This document shows positions 7,601-31,998 of a stretch of DNA of 64,000 nt, in pieces (within the stretch, counting starts at the first letter, position 1; each line of letters starts with the position of its first letter). The DNA lies in IMG/VR virus record IMGVR_UViG_3300050821_002122, positions 96,001 to 160,000 of that record; one strand, given 5' to 3'. The translations under genes were made by a program, and so were the position numbers. This DNA is from a virus. The notes under the pieces were generated by a model that made no database searches, was not told the origin of the DNA, and saw nothing but the letters and a program-made list of their open reading frames with translations.

Positions 7601-7768
7601 TCACGGAATCGGTTTGCTCAGCTTGCCGTAGAGACTAACTGAGGCCCAAGACGCGAAGCCCATAAAGGTCATCATGAGACCATGCCAGTGACCGCTAAAG
7701 AAACCGTGGATGGCTAATCCAGCGAAGATGAGGGTCGTGACGATGCTAAACCACTTGATGAATTTCAT
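7601..7768 (-). CDS. Small membrane protein
   Basis: Two hydrophobic stretches; start MKFIK. Confidence 0.5.
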   Translation of the reverse strand: MKFIKWFSIVTTLIFAGLAIHGFFSGHWHGLMMTFMGFASWASVSLYGKLSKPIP

Positions 7769-8177
7769 AGGGATTCCACCTGTAGGCAAAAAGAAGAAGG
7801 GTCATATTGTCATGACGGAAGGAGATTGGTGTGGCTTCATTACGGCGTACCACAGGACCAGCAGCGTTACGGCCCTCCGATATAGGAGCCGGAAACATAC
7901 CACGCCGCGCATCAACAATGAATGCGTCGATCTTCTCTTTGGTACCTGGCCCATAGCAAACTGCCTGTCGCTTGCCATTGTAGCTGCCTCGATTTCGTAC
8001 CACTATGATTGCTCCGTAATCGCGCATCGTCTGCAAGTGATTGCGCGCGGTGCTGTCTGATATAACGAAGTGATTGGCGAGATCAGCGGACGTAGCGCAG
8101 TGGGTTCTCATATACTCTGCCGAATTCTCCAGCATCACCTCTCGGGTGACTGCTCTGTTTCTTCGTATTAAGGTCAT
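7746..8177 (-). CDS. Winged-helix HTH DNA-binding protein
   Basis: TSADLANHFVISDSTARNHLQTM resembles DeoR/HTH_11 helix-turn-helix. Confidence 0.6.
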   Translation of the reverse strand: MTLIRRNRAVTREVMLENSAEYMRTHCATSADLANHFVISDSTARNHLQTMRDYGAIIVVRNRGSYNGKRQAVCYGPGTKEKIDAFIVDARRGMFPAPISEGRNAAGPVVRRNEATPISFRHDNMTLLLFAYRWNPYEIHQVV

Positions 8178-22724: not shown

Positions 22725-22914
22725 ACCCGAGCGTATGTGACTCTGGGTCACTACGTGCTGCGCGCATATGGGTGTCGCCGCAGTTCGCGCAAGGTATCCG
22801 TGCAACGATCTGAAGAATCGTGATGTCGAATTTTGCATGACTGCGATATATGTGACCGCATTTGCATTCGACGGTGTATTCTGGGTATTGGTCTAGGTTG
22901 GTCCAGTCAATCAT
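22723..22914 (-). CDS. Small zinc-ribbon protein
   Basis: CKC..CANC; start MIDWT at 22914. Confidence 0.5.
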   Translation of the reverse strand: MIDWTNLDQYPEYTVECKCGHIYRSHAKFDITILQIVARIPCANCGDTHMRAARSDPESHTLG

Positions 22915-23437
22915 GATTTCTCCCTGCAGGTTTAGGTAAATATCCCTTCTTATGAAAGATAGTTTTTGCAGCAAAATACGCTGCGCTTGCAGCTTTGGCA
23001 GTGTCAAACCTACCAAGATAGTAATATTTACCGTTGAGACCGATTCGTGACATGAATACCCCATTCAGTTTCGTTACACCAAGCAGACCTGTCTTATTAC
23101 GCCTATGGGCAATTACCTGATTCTGTTGATTCACAGAATTAGTAGTTGCCCTAAGGTTGGACCAACTATTATTTTGCTTATTTCTGTCTTTATGGTCTAC
23201 CATATTTTCAGGGTAGCAACCTCTGACGAATAAATAGGCTAACCTATGAGCTTTATACGCCAATCCATGAATACGAATAACGACATAGCCTTTAGCCAAA
23301 GTACCCGCCGTAGTACCTTGTTTAGCTCTGGTAGCTATCGTTATTCGCCACGTAAAAGAGCCCGTAAGTTTGTCATAACGTAAAAGCGACATAAGCTCTC
23401 GGCGAGACAACTCATTTTTCTTTTTGAGTTTTGGCAT
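22907..23437 (-). CDS. Free-standing HNH-AP2 homing endonuclease
   Basis: YD..TG.FTW, YKAHRLAY, VDHKDRNKQNN..SNLR, G..GV..YLGRFDTAKAASAAY; visibly AT-rich. Confidence 0.9.
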   Translation of the reverse strand: MPKLKKKNELSRRELMSLLRYDKLTGSFTWRITIATRAKQGTTAGTLAKGYVVIRIHGLAYKAHRLAYLFVRGCYPENMVDHKDRNKQNNSWSNLRATTNSVNQQNQVIAHRRNKTGLLGVTKLNGVFMSRIGLNGKYYYLGRFDTAKAASAAYFAAKTIFHKKGYLPKPAGRNHD

Positions 23438-27993: not shown

Positions 27994-28351
27994 TGGTTGA
28001 CCTGTTATAGTTTAGCCGCATACCACTAAGTTCAGAGCCGTAAGTCAACGCCCAGGCGACTGGATTTGTCAGATCGCAGTCGCCCTCATAAAGCATGGTG
28101 AGCATTTCCCTAACAACGTCTTGAACTTGGATTTCGCTGGCAGCCCAGAATATGAAATTTAGGACTTCATGTTCAAAAATAACGAACCGCGGGCTAGAGG
28201 CACCCGCAGCAAGTGCAACGGTAATACGAGTATTAGCCCACGGGCTAACCAACTCGTCAACGAACAGCATGTAAATCTGTTGGTTCAAATGGTCCGATAT
28301 ATAAATCCTGTCTACCTCTACCTGTTCTATGCTGTAGCGGCTTCCTTGCAT
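27980..28351 (-). CDS. Hypothetical protein
   Basis: 123 aa, tiles. Confidence 0.55.
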   Translation of the reverse strand: MQGSRYSIEQVEVDRIYISDHLNQQIYMLFVDELVSPWANTRITVALAAGASSPRFVIFEHEVLNFIFWAASEIQVQDVVREMLTMLYEGDCDLTNPVAWALTYGSELSGMRLNYNRSTNELH

Positions 28352-31300
28352 TTAGACTCCTTGCCCTTATGAATGTAGATTGGCCGGATAGCTTCTACAA
28401 TCTGCTTGTCCAGGTCGCTCACATTCAGTAGAGGATAATGTTTTTGTAGCCAATGACGGCATTTTTTATTAGCCCAAGGTTTGAAGATTTCTTGTAGCAC
28501 ATCCTGTTCGGTTCTACCATCAGCCAACAGGCCAAGCTCTGCCGCTTCTTTTATAGAAGCCTGTATGCCAGAAACAATACTAGGTAAAGACCAATCCCAC
28601 TTATGAGTAATGTCATCACGCGCCCCAAACTCCAACTCGATCTCAGGCTCTACCGGAAACTTGAAGTTGAATTCACGTTCGTAGGCCTCAGTTACACCGT
28701 AAGTTGCACACCACTGGAGAATATGTGCATATGGAATAACCATAGCATACGGCACCGAATAGTAGTTCGCATCGTGAACGGCTCGATTGTACGGCACACG
28801 TAACGACCATGCGTCATATTCAATACCCAGCAGTTCGCAAATCTGAGGCAAACGTTTGTAATAGTGTTCCATAATGATGCGACCAGCTTTGACGCCAATC
28901 TCGGATGCCCAACCTTGGATTGGGGCATTGGAACCTCTACGCACTTGCTGCGCAATGATCTTCTTATCGCCCGTCATTGCAGCGAATAGGTGACGAATAC
29001 GACCGATTGGCGAGAATACGATGTACAGTTCTTCCGCCATCTTTTTCGTCTTGTTGGTCCAAGCACCAGCCTTCTTGAACTCAGCAAAGATTTTGTCGAT
29101 AAGACCTTGAGCGAACGGTGTGCGATCCTCCGCCAGCAAGTCCTTTAACTTCTTCTCGGCCTCAGCAGCCACCTTAGCAGGTGTCTCTTTGTTGCCAATC
29201 GTTGACATCAGTTCCAGCTTATCACCAGTCTTCGTGTCTTCGCCCAAGGTGGCCGCAGACTTACCGTAAATCAGACCGAAGATAATAGCCTTAATCGCAT
29301 CACGAAGGGGATGGTCTTTATCCACGATCTTGTTTAGCAACCGCTTCACGTTCAGGATATGGATATCACCGCGCAACTTTATATCAGCTAAAGCCTTTAC
29401 ACTTGGATGGCGGTAATCACCATCATCTTCGGCCATTGAATACATACCATCATTTGCGAATTCTGCATGATACTTCTTCGCAGCTTTGACGTAGGCCTTA
29501 TGTGCCAATTCTTGTGAGCCAAAGACACCTAAGTGCTTTACCTTTTTACGTGGACTCGGTTTTATCTGTGCTACCCAACTGCCTGCTTTCGGCCCAGGAT
29601 AAACACCTTTGTAACCAGAGCTAGTTTTTGTGGAATCAGTTCTGCGGTTTCTTGAATTCTCCAACCTAGTTGCTGGTCGTAGATTATTAATGCGATTGTT
29701 AAACGGATTGTTGTCTTTGTGGTCTACTTCAACTGGAAGGTACCCGTAAACCAGCAAAAAGGCTATTCTATGTGCTCTATACAACTCACCATTTAGGGAT
29801 AGGTACCACGAATCTTTACGTTTGGAGCCTGCCACACTTCCTATAGGTGTATTGCGGCTGCGAGCTTGTTTCCAGGTGAATTTTCCACTATCTGGGTCGT
29901 AAATAAACCACTCATCCATGAGTTTTTTTAGGTCTTTATCTTCTTGCGGAATACCAGGGATAGCTATATATGCCTGCCGCAATTTCTGACCAATGCGGAA
30001 AATACCAGCCAGCACATCGTCAAGTCCAACGTAAGACCACACACGTACCTCATGCGCGGAATAATCGTAACGCATGAGCAGATAGCCCTTAGGCGTAATG
30101 AACATGTGCTTGATGATCTTGGCCAATTTACCACGAGATGGAATCGTTTGCAAGCTTGGGTTCTTCGATGCCAGTCGCCCTGTAGCGACATCGAAATACG
30201 AATAGTCGGGTCGCAGATGATGGTCTTCAATACTGTCCGCATTAGAGCGGAGTTTTTTCAGCCAACCCTTAGCATAGGTGCCCAGCAGCTTAGAGAGTTT
30301 CGAGTAATCACCGTAGGCTGCTACGACCTGATTCTTATCCTTGTTGGCGGCAACAAAGGCTTTGTCGACCGACGATTCACCCTGCTTGGTCGTGTTGACC
30401 GGCTCGTAACCCATGACATCGAAGAATAGAGTACGCAAGTGATTACCCTTGCTAAGACTCAATGCCCAATTCAATGCCTTGGCTCTCGCTTTGCCGAACA
30501 GTCCTTTGGTTTTCAAACCGCTCTTAGCAAGTATGATATCGTTTGCCTTCACCGCCTCCGGGAACACACGGAATGCATTGCTGAGATTTTTCATCTCAGT
30601 ACGAAGCGGACTTTCTGTGGAGGTGAGATACTTCAGGTACTTCGCATCTATCAAGGACCCATCTTCGCGCAGGTGACTCAGTTGATGGACGGTATCGGAC
30701 ATTTGGTACTGCATATGACGTACGAAATACTCACCATAAGGCTTACCATCGATCAGCTGGTGATCTGCCATCTTGATCTGTTCTTGGCGCATTGCGAGAA
30801 TCGATACTACGTCCATGGCGGCATAGCGCAAGAAGTGCTTGTCGTTGGGCTTGATGTTACCGCAAGTGTTGCGATCTTCCTTGCTGAACTTCGTAGTCTC
30901 GCGGTAGTAGAAGTCGTTGCGATAGCTGCATAGCACAGCAGCCAAGTTACCTGGCTTTGATCCGAAGTTCGACAGCTCGACGATATTTTCATCGAGGTCA
31001 TGCTCACCCGCGATGATATCCCATGCGCGGTGTAGAATGATTGGTATCTTGAAATAGCGACGTATGACTCGCAGATCGTAGGGACCGTTAAAGAACACAA
31101 ACTCTTTAAGACCCTTCTTTTCTGCCTCACTGAAAAATGCCTTCAGTTCACGGCGTATGTATGCAAGTTCCTCTTTGGTCCACGGTGTCATTGGGTGGCT
31201 CAATGGAAGCACGTACCCGACGTCGGGATTCAATTCGGTGGCGAACTGCATCGTGTAGATTTTATTGAAGTGGACTGAGAGGTCTTTAGTCTCCGTATCC

Positions 31301-31998
31301 AATGCAATAGTCTTCGACTTGCGCAGGCGTACCATCAGCTTGTCGAATAATTCTATGGTGCCGATGTACTTAGGTTTAGGTTCCACGTGACCAATGTCAT
31401 GCGGATGTTTACCCAGCAATAGATTGTTCAAGTGTCTGCACCAGAAGCCCAGCAGATTGGCATACTTACCGTCTTTCTCCAACAATCGGCTGAAGTCCAA
31501 CGTCGATACGACTTTCAACTTCAGATCATGCGACTTGAGGTCATGGACCCATCCGCGCTTGTAGGTATGCTTCTCTACCTGCGGCCACATAGCGTTCATG
31601 GCTTCGTCACCGGAGACCAGTACATGCGTCGGCTGTAGTTTCTCAATAAGCTTGTGCATGTGGGCAGCGAACTCAAGTTCTGCTTGCTTGCGGGCTTTGC
31701 CCTTCAGGTGAAGGTGCCGTTTCTGATTGAAGTTCGCTACTGCGTAAGAAGCCTCGGCTGCACCTTCTTTGTAGGAGCGCACAATACCCCTGGTATACTT
31801 GATCGCGTTCTTGAATGCTGTGTTGACATTGCGGTCTTGAAGCAACCCTCGTGCTTTGAGATCGCGGCCGTCAACCGTTTGTAGGCATACCAGTACGCGC
31901 TTCTTACTTTGCTTCCAGTCAGAGCAACGAGGCATATGCAGATTGTATGCGTCCTCGTCCTCATATGGAAACTTGAATGTGGTCTCAAGCATATGCAC
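28327..31998 (-). CDS. polA: Family A DNA polymerase: UDG-like N-domain, 3'-5' exonuclease, polymerase with in-frame HNH-AP2 insert
   Basis: Exo ALDTET, FNGPYD, YAAMD; TGRLAS..NLQ, motif A DYSAHEVR, motif B RDAIKAIIFGLIYG, NAPIQG, motif C VHDA. Confidence 0.93.
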   Translation of the reverse strand: MHMLETTFKFPYEDEDAYNLHMPRCSDWKQSKKRVLVCLQTVDGRDLKARGLLQDRNVNTAFKNAIKYTRGIVRSYKEGAAEASYAVANFNQKRHLHLKGKARKQAELEFAAHMHKLIEKLQPTHVLVSGDEAMNAMWPQVEKHTYKRGWVHDLKSHDLKLKVVSTLDFSRLLEKDGKYANLLGFWCRHLNNLLLGKHPHDIGHVEPKPKYIGTIELFDKLMVRLRKSKTIALDTETKDLSVHFNKIYTMQFATELNPDVGYVLPLSHPMTPWTKEELAYIRRELKAFFSEAEKKGLKEFVFFNGPYDLRVIRRYFKIPIILHRAWDIIAGEHDLDENIVELSNFGSKPGNLAAVLCSYRNDFYYRETTKFSKEDRNTCGNIKPNDKHFLRYAAMDVVSILAMRQEQIKMADHQLIDGKPYGEYFVRHMQYQMSDTVHQLSHLREDGSLIDAKYLKYLTSTESPLRTEMKNLSNAFRVFPEAVKANDIILAKSGLKTKGLFGKARAKALNWALSLSKGNHLRTLFFDVMGYEPVNTTKQGESSVDKAFVAANKDKNQVVAAYGDYSKLSKLLGTYAKGWLKKLRSNADSIEDHHLRPDYSYFDVATGRLASKNPSLQTIPSRGKLAKIIKHMFITPKGYLLMRYDYSAHEVRVWSYVGLDDVLAGIFRIGQKLRQAYIAIPGIPQEDKDLKKLMDEWFIYDPDSGKFTWKQARSRNTPIGSVAGSKRKDSWYLSLNGELYRAHRIAFLLVYGYLPVEVDHKDNNPFNNRINNLRPATRLENSRNRRTDSTKTSSGYKGVYPGPKAGSWVAQIKPSPRKKVKHLGVFGSQELAHKAYVKAAKKYHAEFANDGMYSMAEDDGDYRHPSVKALADIKLRGDIHILNVKRLLNKIVDKDHPLRDAIKAIIFGLIYGKSAATLGEDTKTGDKLELMSTIGNKETPAKVAAEAEKKLKDLLAEDRTPFAQGLIDKIFAEFKKAGAWTNKTKKMAEELYIVFSPIGRIRHLFAAMTGDKKIIAQQVRRGSNAPIQGWASEIGVKAGRIIMEHYYKRLPQICELLGIEYDAWSLRVPYNRAVHDANYYSVPYAMVIPYAHILQWCATYGVTEAYEREFNFKFPVEPEIELEFGARDDITHKWDWSLPSIVSGIQASIKEAAELGLLADGRTEQDVLQEIFKPWANKKCRHWLQKHYPLLNVSDLDKQIVEAIRPIYIHKGKESKCKEAATA
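29410..29961 (-). mobile_element. HNH-AP2 endonuclease domain inserted in frame in polA
   Basis: YDPDSGKFTW, YRAHRIAF, VDHKDNNPFNNRINNLR, GYKGV, HLGVF, YHAEFA; boundaries approximate. Confidence 0.88.

Follow-up and report, generated by a model that had tools for sequence, protein, structure and literature searches.

An HNH-AP2 homing-endonuclease module in frame within the family A DNA polymerase of a jumbo phage, probably maintained without splicing

The stretch of DNA analyzed here, called the window throughout, comprises 64,000 nucleotides (bases 96001-160000) of the IMG/VR record IMGVR_UViG_3300050821_002122, a sequence of 189,689 bp, estimated to be 80% complete, from a jumbo phage that is kin to BcepSaruman, phiRSL1 and Motura. 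On the minus strand of the window lies the gene for a family A DNA polymerase with a 3'-5' exonuclease, and within this single unbroken open reading frame (ORF), between polymerase motif A and the Gly-Asp-Ile-His (DIH) helix, lies an in-frame insert encoding a complete HNH-AP2 module. Our analyses suggest that the insert is probably an I-HmuI-like homing-endonuclease module which persists in the polymerase as a non-spliced, in-frame domain insertion. The features concerned are the following.

28327..31998, minus strand: family A DNA polymerase gene (3'-5' exonuclease and polymerase), a single unbroken ORF of 1223 codons
30787..31365, minus strand: 3'-5' exonuclease domain, residues 212-404 (Pfam PF01612, DNA_pol_A_exo1, 33.7 bits)
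30043..30066, minus strand: polymerase motif A (DYSAHEVR), residues 645-652, invariant in every aligned polymerase
29404..29955, minus strand: insert of 184 codons in frame with the polymerase (G682-P865), made up of an entire HNH-AP2 module and a C-terminal linker of about 15 residues
29650..29781, minus strand: HNH_3 nuclease core, residues 740-783 (Pfam, 50.7-53.6 bits, cut-off 24.8)
29464..29619, minus strand: AP2-type DNA-binding domain, residues 794-845 (Pfam, below cut-off)
29404..29421, minus strand: C-terminal junction peptide GDYRHP, residues 860-865, invariant in eight of nine inserts
29356..29403, minus strand: residues 866-881, comprising the returning helix of the predicted fingers hairpin and the first part of the DIH helix
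29260..29304, minus strand: polymerase motif B, residues 899-913 (Arg899, Lys903, Phe907 and Gly908 invariant in alignments A1 and A3)
28768..28779, minus strand: polymerase motif C, residues 1074-1077, invariant in alignment A1
22907..23437, minus strand: free-standing HNH-AP2 paralogue of 176 residues, 34% identical to the insert (29% in the multiple alignment)

Both enzymatic parts of the polymerase appeared intact. The exonuclease and DNA_pol_A profiles scored above their Pfam cut-offs (the latter from residue 513, with 120.6 bits), the exonuclease motif residues were invariant in alignments A1 and A3, and motifs A, B and C were preserved; for Tyr911, Gly912 and Lys913 of motif B invariance was confined to A1, since a row of A3 ends early, at an intron of its own. 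Since homologues begin at a Met two codons in, the real start of the polymerase is probably the ATG at 31992. By tblastn the gene was 46-52% identical to the polymerases of BcepSaruman, BcepSauron, BCSR5, phiRSL1 and Motura (46-53% for BcepSaruman, phiRSL1 and Motura with the alignment included), and the downstream gene order, two small genes followed by a DnaG-type primase, was common to the window and these cultured jumbo phages. All of the cultured relatives that were aligned (BcepSaruman, BcepSauron, phiRSL1 and Motura) lack the insert. No second PolA, PolB or DnaE-type polymerase was found in the 190-kb record.

The limits of the insert were set by comparing loop lengths among about 40 related polymerases in all, including those of BcepSaruman, phiRSL1, Motura and about 28 IMG/VR relatives. 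The distance from the helix after motif A to the Gly-Asp-Ile-His helix was 45 residues in most genes, 87-91 in five and 228-240 in nine. With 229 residues in the window gene as against 45 in insert-free homologues, the insert comprises exactly 184 codons; the initial annotation, which had described a complete in-frame HNH-AP2 nuclease of about 184 codons between motif A and the DIH helix and had proposed this very alignment, was thus borne out by both alignment and Pfam. It had placed the nuclease at 29410-29961, which is the right site, and the most natural limits, 29404-29955, lie only two codons away, the two choices being equivalent because a proline stands at both ends. Insert-free loops carry a Pro and then Ser/Thr, followed by eleven residues to Gly-Asp; in the window gene the Pro is followed by the insert, which ends in His-Pro, and then by Ser and the same eleven-residue helix, such that the spacing from Pro to Gly-Asp is 11 residues with or without the insert. 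Furthermore, the match to the DNA_pol_A profile ended at profile position 184 before the insert and restarted at position 182 after it, and this overlap means that no polymerase sequence is missing.

The HNH part of the insert was recognized by Pfam well above threshold, and the AP2 part scored 28.2 bits in the whole protein and 31.8 bits in the insert alone, under the gathering cut-off of 33.3; structurally, the AP2 part, a three-stranded sheet packed on a helix in the model, superposed on solved AP2 domains. An AlphaFold2 (AF2) model of the insert alone (predicted local distance difference test, pLDDT, 90.3) contained an AP2 domain matching TEM1 and ERF1 with a Foldseek probability of 1.00, a root-mean-square deviation of 1.5-1.8 A over 49-53 residues and 35-39% identity (VIA-align Z 7.1-7.6). 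The first ~100 residues of the insert matched the homing endonuclease I-HmuI (1u3e) in VIA-align, with Z 5.6 and 2.4 A over 82 residues, and the corresponding sequence match had an E-value of 0.013; I-HmuI was listed by the wide VIA-align search and not by Foldseek run on the insert model.

The insert could be aligned over its whole length with HNH-AP2 proteins that are free-standing and 150-180 residues long, and these were 36-46% identical to it (46% being the best). The starts of these free-standing proteins aligned about 10 residues into the insert, and their stops fell about 15 residues before its end. The C-terminal linker ending in GDYRHP, a peptide not present in the free-standing relatives, is specific to the fused form. 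The insert itself is no free-standing gene, having neither a stop nor a conserved start and a frame that is continuous with the polymerase in nine genes. The paralogue at 22907..23437, only 34% identical to the insert, is not its recent source.

A homologous insert was present at the same site, and always in frame, in eight other polymerases that were 34-71% identical to that of the window. A protein-cluster search (5.8 billion clusters, long proteins only) returned eight polymerases of the same fused architecture, and the ninth, L008, came from IMG/VR. The nine host polymerases were mutually 30-71% identical and their inserts 41-76%. Within the HNH domain Asp759-His760, Asn772, Asn781 and Asn784 were invariant in all nine inserts, as was much of the AP2 domain. 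Natural variants were also observed: in L043 and L046 the Ala-His-Arg motif that lies upstream of the catalytic Asp-His has Asn in place of its His; these two and L008, the one insert lacking GDYRHP, should be useful for dissecting which residues of the insert matter. In view of this recurrence there is next to no chance that the arrangement is an assembly chimera, a sequencing error or a decaying pseudogene. The window does represent a single metagenomic record, yet independent assemblies from JGI, Logan, ENA and NCBI, nine in all, show the same in-frame arrangement, the polymerase and exonuclease motifs are all intact and the sequences bear the marks of strong purifying selection.

That selection was examined through nonsynonymous divergence (dN) only, because synonymous sites were saturated even in the closest pairs. 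In the insert dN was 0.19-0.26, matching the 0.17-0.23 of the polymerase domain, and in the N-terminal half it was 0.32-0.38; purifying selection on the insert thus seems to be as strong as that on the polymerase domain. No codon position of the junction peptides was free of synonymous differences, Arg, for instance, being written CGN in some genes and AGA in others. Because the peptides were kept through these synonymous changes, it is the protein that is constrained, and translation runs through the junctions in this frame.

Searches for the machinery by which such an insert might be removed were uniformly negative. At gathering thresholds the window was free of Rfam matches, and in 28900-30500 relaxing the E-value to 10 still yielded none; as a positive control, the same approach recovered, in the related L041 polymerase, a group I intron within motif B (RF00028, 54.2 bits). 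There is neither a ribozyme match nor a stop within the insert to suggest a group I or group II intron, and since about 480 or more of its 552 nucleotides are taken up by the nuclease reading frame, no room is left for a ribozyme core. Pfam searches at E-values up to 1 found no Hint or intein family, there is no N-terminal Cys/Ser block, and the insert ends in His-Pro and not in the His-Asn of an intein. The initial annotation, working from the letters alone, had asserted just this absence of intein and intron machinery, of an N-terminal Cys/Ser block and a His-Asn end, and of spare sequence for a group I core, and had named detection of a Hint domain by profile search as grounds for abandoning its reading; at the sensitivity of Pfam and Rfam its description holds.

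These results bear directly on whether the insert might be removed by a route that goes unrecognized, namely non-canonical protein splicing or proteolysis at the junction peptides, or RNA excision outside known intron models. Such removal would account for the striking conservation of the junction peptides, with Ile-Pro near the N-side and, on the C-side, GDYRHP in eight of nine inserts and in none of the free-standing relatives, and also for the Thr or Cys that precedes the first Pro in seven of nine genes. However, that position is Ile in the window gene and Leu in L008, the residue following the C-junction varies (Ser, Thr, Phe, Trp or Leu), and L008 lacks GDYRHP altogether. In addition, the missing Hint domain and the His-Pro end speak against protein splicing, the synonymous variation of the junction codons leaves no conservation at the RNA level, the 552 nucleotides offer no space for a ribozyme where Rfam, able to find the L041 intron, finds nothing, and AF2 folds the junctions confidently as predicted parts of one protein. 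We therefore regard unrecognized removal as very unlikely. A slimmer chance still attaches to the specific idea that the junction peptides might mark a Hint-free self-processing or host-assisted excision chemistry, freeing the nuclease and restoring a compact polymerase; if true, this would constitute a previously unknown way to remove or cleave an internal protein segment.

Other ways of producing the nuclease were also considered. An alternative-frame nuclease was rejected, the only other ORF of at least 40 residues on the coding strand that overlaps the insert being one of 43 residues at its edge (29397-29528). An internal promoter was likewise set aside, with no promoter-like site inside the insert on the coding strand. 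Translational bypassing was put aside on prior grounds, 552 nucleotides being far beyond known hops and no stop standing at the take-off site.

The gene might also be the fused remnant of a split one, in which two polymerase genes formerly stood on either side of a free-standing nuclease gene, the stops have since disappeared and the C-terminal polymerase part continues to be made separately from an internal start. Five relatives (L007, L026, L008, L031 and L033) do carry their polymerase as two ORFs, and Met codons are present in the C-terminal linker of the window gene, where the initial annotation had seen in Met-Tyr-Ser-Met a possible restart. But the five relatives are split elsewhere, after motif B, and none at the insert site; the Met residues are missing from the other eight inserts, so that the proposed restart finds no backing in the family; no stop ends an N-terminal product; the coding strand of the insert holds no promoter-like site; and no close free-standing form exists, the best being the 46% identical relative already mentioned. 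A split-gene origin is accordingly highly improbable.

The placement of the insert was examined with an AF2 model of residues 430-1223 built from an alignment of 56 sequences. The model was confident (pLDDT 91.3; predicted template modeling score 0.89), and its polymerase part matched the KlenTaq and Bst structures with E-values of 1e-15. In the model the insert is flanked by the post-motif-A helix (model residues 232-249) and by the returning helix (436-447), which is followed by a helix at 450-459; it starts after a six-residue loop and ends in a linker of lower confidence (74) before GDYRHP (pLDDT 93). Because the order is helix, insert, helix, the two flanking helices probably form a hairpin projecting from the fingers with the insert at its tip, in keeping with the fingers location for which the initial annotation had suggested an AlphaFold check. 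Unrelated and probably helical expansions were found at the same tip in five insert-free polymerases (L017, L034 and L036 with 46 residues, L030 with 42 and L038 with 44), which independently mark the site as permissive; changes in length apparently tend to collect at this loop in general.

A maximum-likelihood tree of 37 polymerases, constructed with the loop columns removed and near-duplicate rows left out, showed how unevenly the insert is distributed. Nine of the 37 polymerases carry it at the identical site, and 28 do not, nor do the omitted near-duplicates; its presence requires 8 state changes, at least 7 of them forced by well-supported branches, and its scatter is no more clustered than that of shuffled labels (mean of 8.2 changes). 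The window gene falls in a group with L042 and L043, both of which bear the insert; the sisters of L042 are L023 and L025, which lack it and are the closest on the tree apart from L042 and L043, and L007, likewise without the insert, branches next. To occur sporadically, at a single exact site in alleles that are otherwise homologous, is the pattern of a homing endonuclease gene. The tree thus demands many gains or losses, and the data fit either direction.

Two observations favor transfer between genomes over deletion. First, in eight of nine genes the GC content at third codon positions (GC3) was lower in the insert (z -3.9 to -7.4) than in any stretch of equal size from the host gene, despite the shared reading frame, marking the insert as foreign. 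Second, the insert-free loops have a motif of their own (Pro, Ser/Thr, acidic) in most lineages, a tendency and not a perfect discriminator, which independent deletions from insert-bearing alleles would hardly regenerate. Neither sliding-window identity nor a regression on 12-residue flanks clearly indicated co-conversion of the flanks past the first few residues; the placement of the short loop by MAFFT is unreliable there. Searches for close relatives were negative as well: megablast of the gene against 50,697 phage records gave no match, single-protein scans of IMG/VR and JGI metagenomes gave no close relative and only one 52%-identical insert-free fragment, and a scan of 185,579 prokaryote genomes with an insert profile gave no match.

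The same phylogenetic data speak to the proposal that an HNH-AP2 gene was captured once, long ago, and has been inherited vertically ever since as a domesticated accessory domain, with loss in many lineages; its proposed roles include a DNA-binding or processivity module, a replication nickase for priming or processing, and a weapon against co-infecting relatives. The inserts within polymerases do form one clade relative to the free-standing proteins (support 97/97), as a single origin would have it, and purifying selection equal to that on the polymerase domain, catalytic residues intact in nine of nine copies and a conserved junction peptide would all suit a domain that serves its host. An advantage to the phage is conceivable too, given that for PhiPA3 an intron-encoded nuclease is documented to favor its phage in competition (PMC11620839). 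Against domestication, however, stand the independent state changes, at least seven of them, and the absence of the insert from its two closest insert-free tree neighbors, a GC3 that is still foreign to the host gene in eight of nine genomes, the fact that most members of the family, including all of the cultured phages, do without the domain, and the insert-free loop motif, which would be hard to regenerate by independent deletions and which reads differently in insert-bearing alleles. On this evidence we consider domestication unlikely, although it is the strongest of the rival readings.

Taken together, the results lead us to favor a homing-endonuclease module that is carried as an unspliced domain of the polymerase, which we judge to be probable, because the frame is conserved in nine divergent genes, the junctions are under selection at the protein level, the distribution is patchy and the loop is permissive. 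The initial annotation had left three alternatives standing; of these the non-spliced fusion is thus preferred, the split remnant is not supported, no insert-bearing gene having a stop there, and an unrecognized splicing route has only the conserved junction peptides in its favor. Several points nevertheless weigh against our preference. The polymerase topology was not rejected for the inserts (approximately unbiased test, p 0.23), although co-divergence is not proven by this either, and the identities of inserts and polymerases correlate (r 0.70), so that long vertical residence with repeated loss, as domestication would have it, is possible. None of the nine copies shows decay and each is intact, not an obvious expectation if the element were purely selfish. 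No near-identical pair of phages with and without the insert was found among the phage records, IMG/VR and the JGI metagenomes, and hence no recent gain or loss has been caught. As the record is about 80% complete, a second polymerase could conceivably lie outside the sequenced part. Finally, all of the support is computational and the phage is uncultured.

If a non-spliced homing module is the correct interpretation, the polymerase mRNA would be translated straight through the insert to give a protein of about 1221 residues, in which a folded nuclease and DNA-binding module would sit at the solvent-exposed tip of the fingers hairpin, between the post-motif-A helix and the DIH helix. The polymerase would remain functional without splicing, in our proposal because the hairpin tip is structurally permissive. 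In mixed infections the module, as a part of the polymerase, would nick or cut the loop-coding site of insert-free alleles, and recombinational repair would then copy the insert into the cut allele. As the host gene is presumably essential, the nuclease ORF would thereby be shielded from decay, since a stop or frameshift in it would kill the polymerase. Of these steps we infer four in particular, namely the absence of splicing, the polymerase activity of the fusion, the activity and target of the nuclease, and homing; what the analyses themselves establish is the unbroken frame, the homology of the insert, its recurrence, the constraint on the protein, the patchy distribution, the foreign composition and the predicted fold.

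The HNH-AP2 family, also called 'IPA-HNH', was reportedly first described by Magnani et al. in 2004. Free-standing homing endonucleases of this family occur in phages such as ICP1 and those of the Felix O1-like group, and 29% of such genes are reported to adjoin DNA polymerase genes (Barth et al. 2023, PMC10448857). They resemble the insert in architecture (an I-HmuI-like HNH domain at the N-terminus, an AP2 domain at the C-terminus), in length and in their 36-46% identity, but have their own start and stop and lie between or beside host genes, whereas the insert is an internal domain of the polymerase with a conserved C-terminal linker. I-HmuI, I-HmuII and I-BasI are HNH nicking endonucleases encoded in group I introns of the DNA polymerase genes of SPO1-type phages. 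Like the insert, they are HNH homing nucleases inside a phage family A polymerase gene, and the fold matches (1U3E); their ORFs, however, are housed in a self-splicing ribozyme and end in a stop, whereas the insert has no detectable ribozyme and its frame continues into the polymerase. Inteins with a nested homing endonuclease share with the insert the nature of an in-frame selfish element in a replication gene, translated together with its host, but the insert has no Hint domain and neither a nucleophile nor His-Asn at its junctions, and occupies a variable loop instead of a conserved catalytic motif. In Cas9 an HNH domain is nested in the RuvC fold and is retained in the mature protein. The likeness lies in an HNH domain within the fold of another enzyme; that of Cas9 is fixed, universal and functionally integrated, whereas the polymerase insert is sporadic and compositionally foreign.

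The nearest precedent for a non-spliced, in-frame and patchy insertion is the ShiLan domain, which Arsenault, Gosselin and Gogarten (2025, PMC11855218) reported from a DNA methylase of an actinophage. That domain similarly has no features of an intein or intron, is disjointly distributed and, by prediction, remains part of the protein, from which it protrudes (PMC11855218). Its HNH nuclease is encoded in another frame, only a hairpin is made in the frame of the host, and the host gene can be dispensed with (PMC11855218), whereas the polymerase insert carries its nuclease in the frame of the host, is predicted to fold as two domains and lies in the only DNA polymerase found in the record; it thus has no alternative-frame nuclease of the ShiLan type. 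No report of an in-frame, non-spliced HNH-AP2 module inside a polymerase was found in open-access full-text papers and preprints.

Homing-endonuclease genes are usually thought to inhabit conserved, essential genes only by way of a self-splicing intron or an intein, and otherwise to stand free between genes. The present case suggests a third arrangement, in which the nuclease is simply accommodated as one more domain in a permissive loop of what is apparently the sole DNA polymerase of the phage, and its recurrence in eight other polymerases looks like a real and little-described way of life for a selfish nuclease gene in a presumably needed polymerase gene. If this is true, the list of vehicles for selfish nucleases grows, and the gene would constitute a natural polymerase-nuclease chimera that maps a site in family A polymerases accepting a 184-residue insertion, which would be useful for enzyme engineering. 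It would also provide a counter-example for annotation pipelines, which are prone to call such inserts unannotated introns or inteins.

The family displays additional mobile elements and gene splits at other sites. The L041 polymerase (P0005) has, besides its own in-frame HNH-AP2 insert, the group I intron noted above (7742-7962), which breaks motif B immediately behind Phe-Gly. On the opposite strand (L041:8112-9299), after the intron core and before the second exon, lies a DUF7487 gene of 395 residues with weak matches to TnsA and endonuclease I-like proteins. Furthermore, a Dda/PIF1-like helicase gene upstream of P0005 (L041:516-3431) contains an internal LAGLIDADG_3 match, possibly an intein, such that the replication module of this phage may hold three or four different mobile elements. 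The two-ORF polymerases of L026, L007, L008, L031 and L033 are split in the variable region after motif B, at about residues 926-948 in the numbering of the window gene. Rfam detected no intron in these relatives, which may therefore be true two-subunit polymerases. With a group I intron and gene fission at sites other than that of the insert, the family offers a compact system in which to compare how an essential gene copes with mobile elements. The polymerase halves are separated in L026 by an antisense DUF7487 gene (L026:3323-4507) and in L007 by two small ORFs (L007:4271-4911), and in the remaining three they overlap or abut with nothing between them (L008:4904-4916, L031:4312-4322 and L033:4301-4328).

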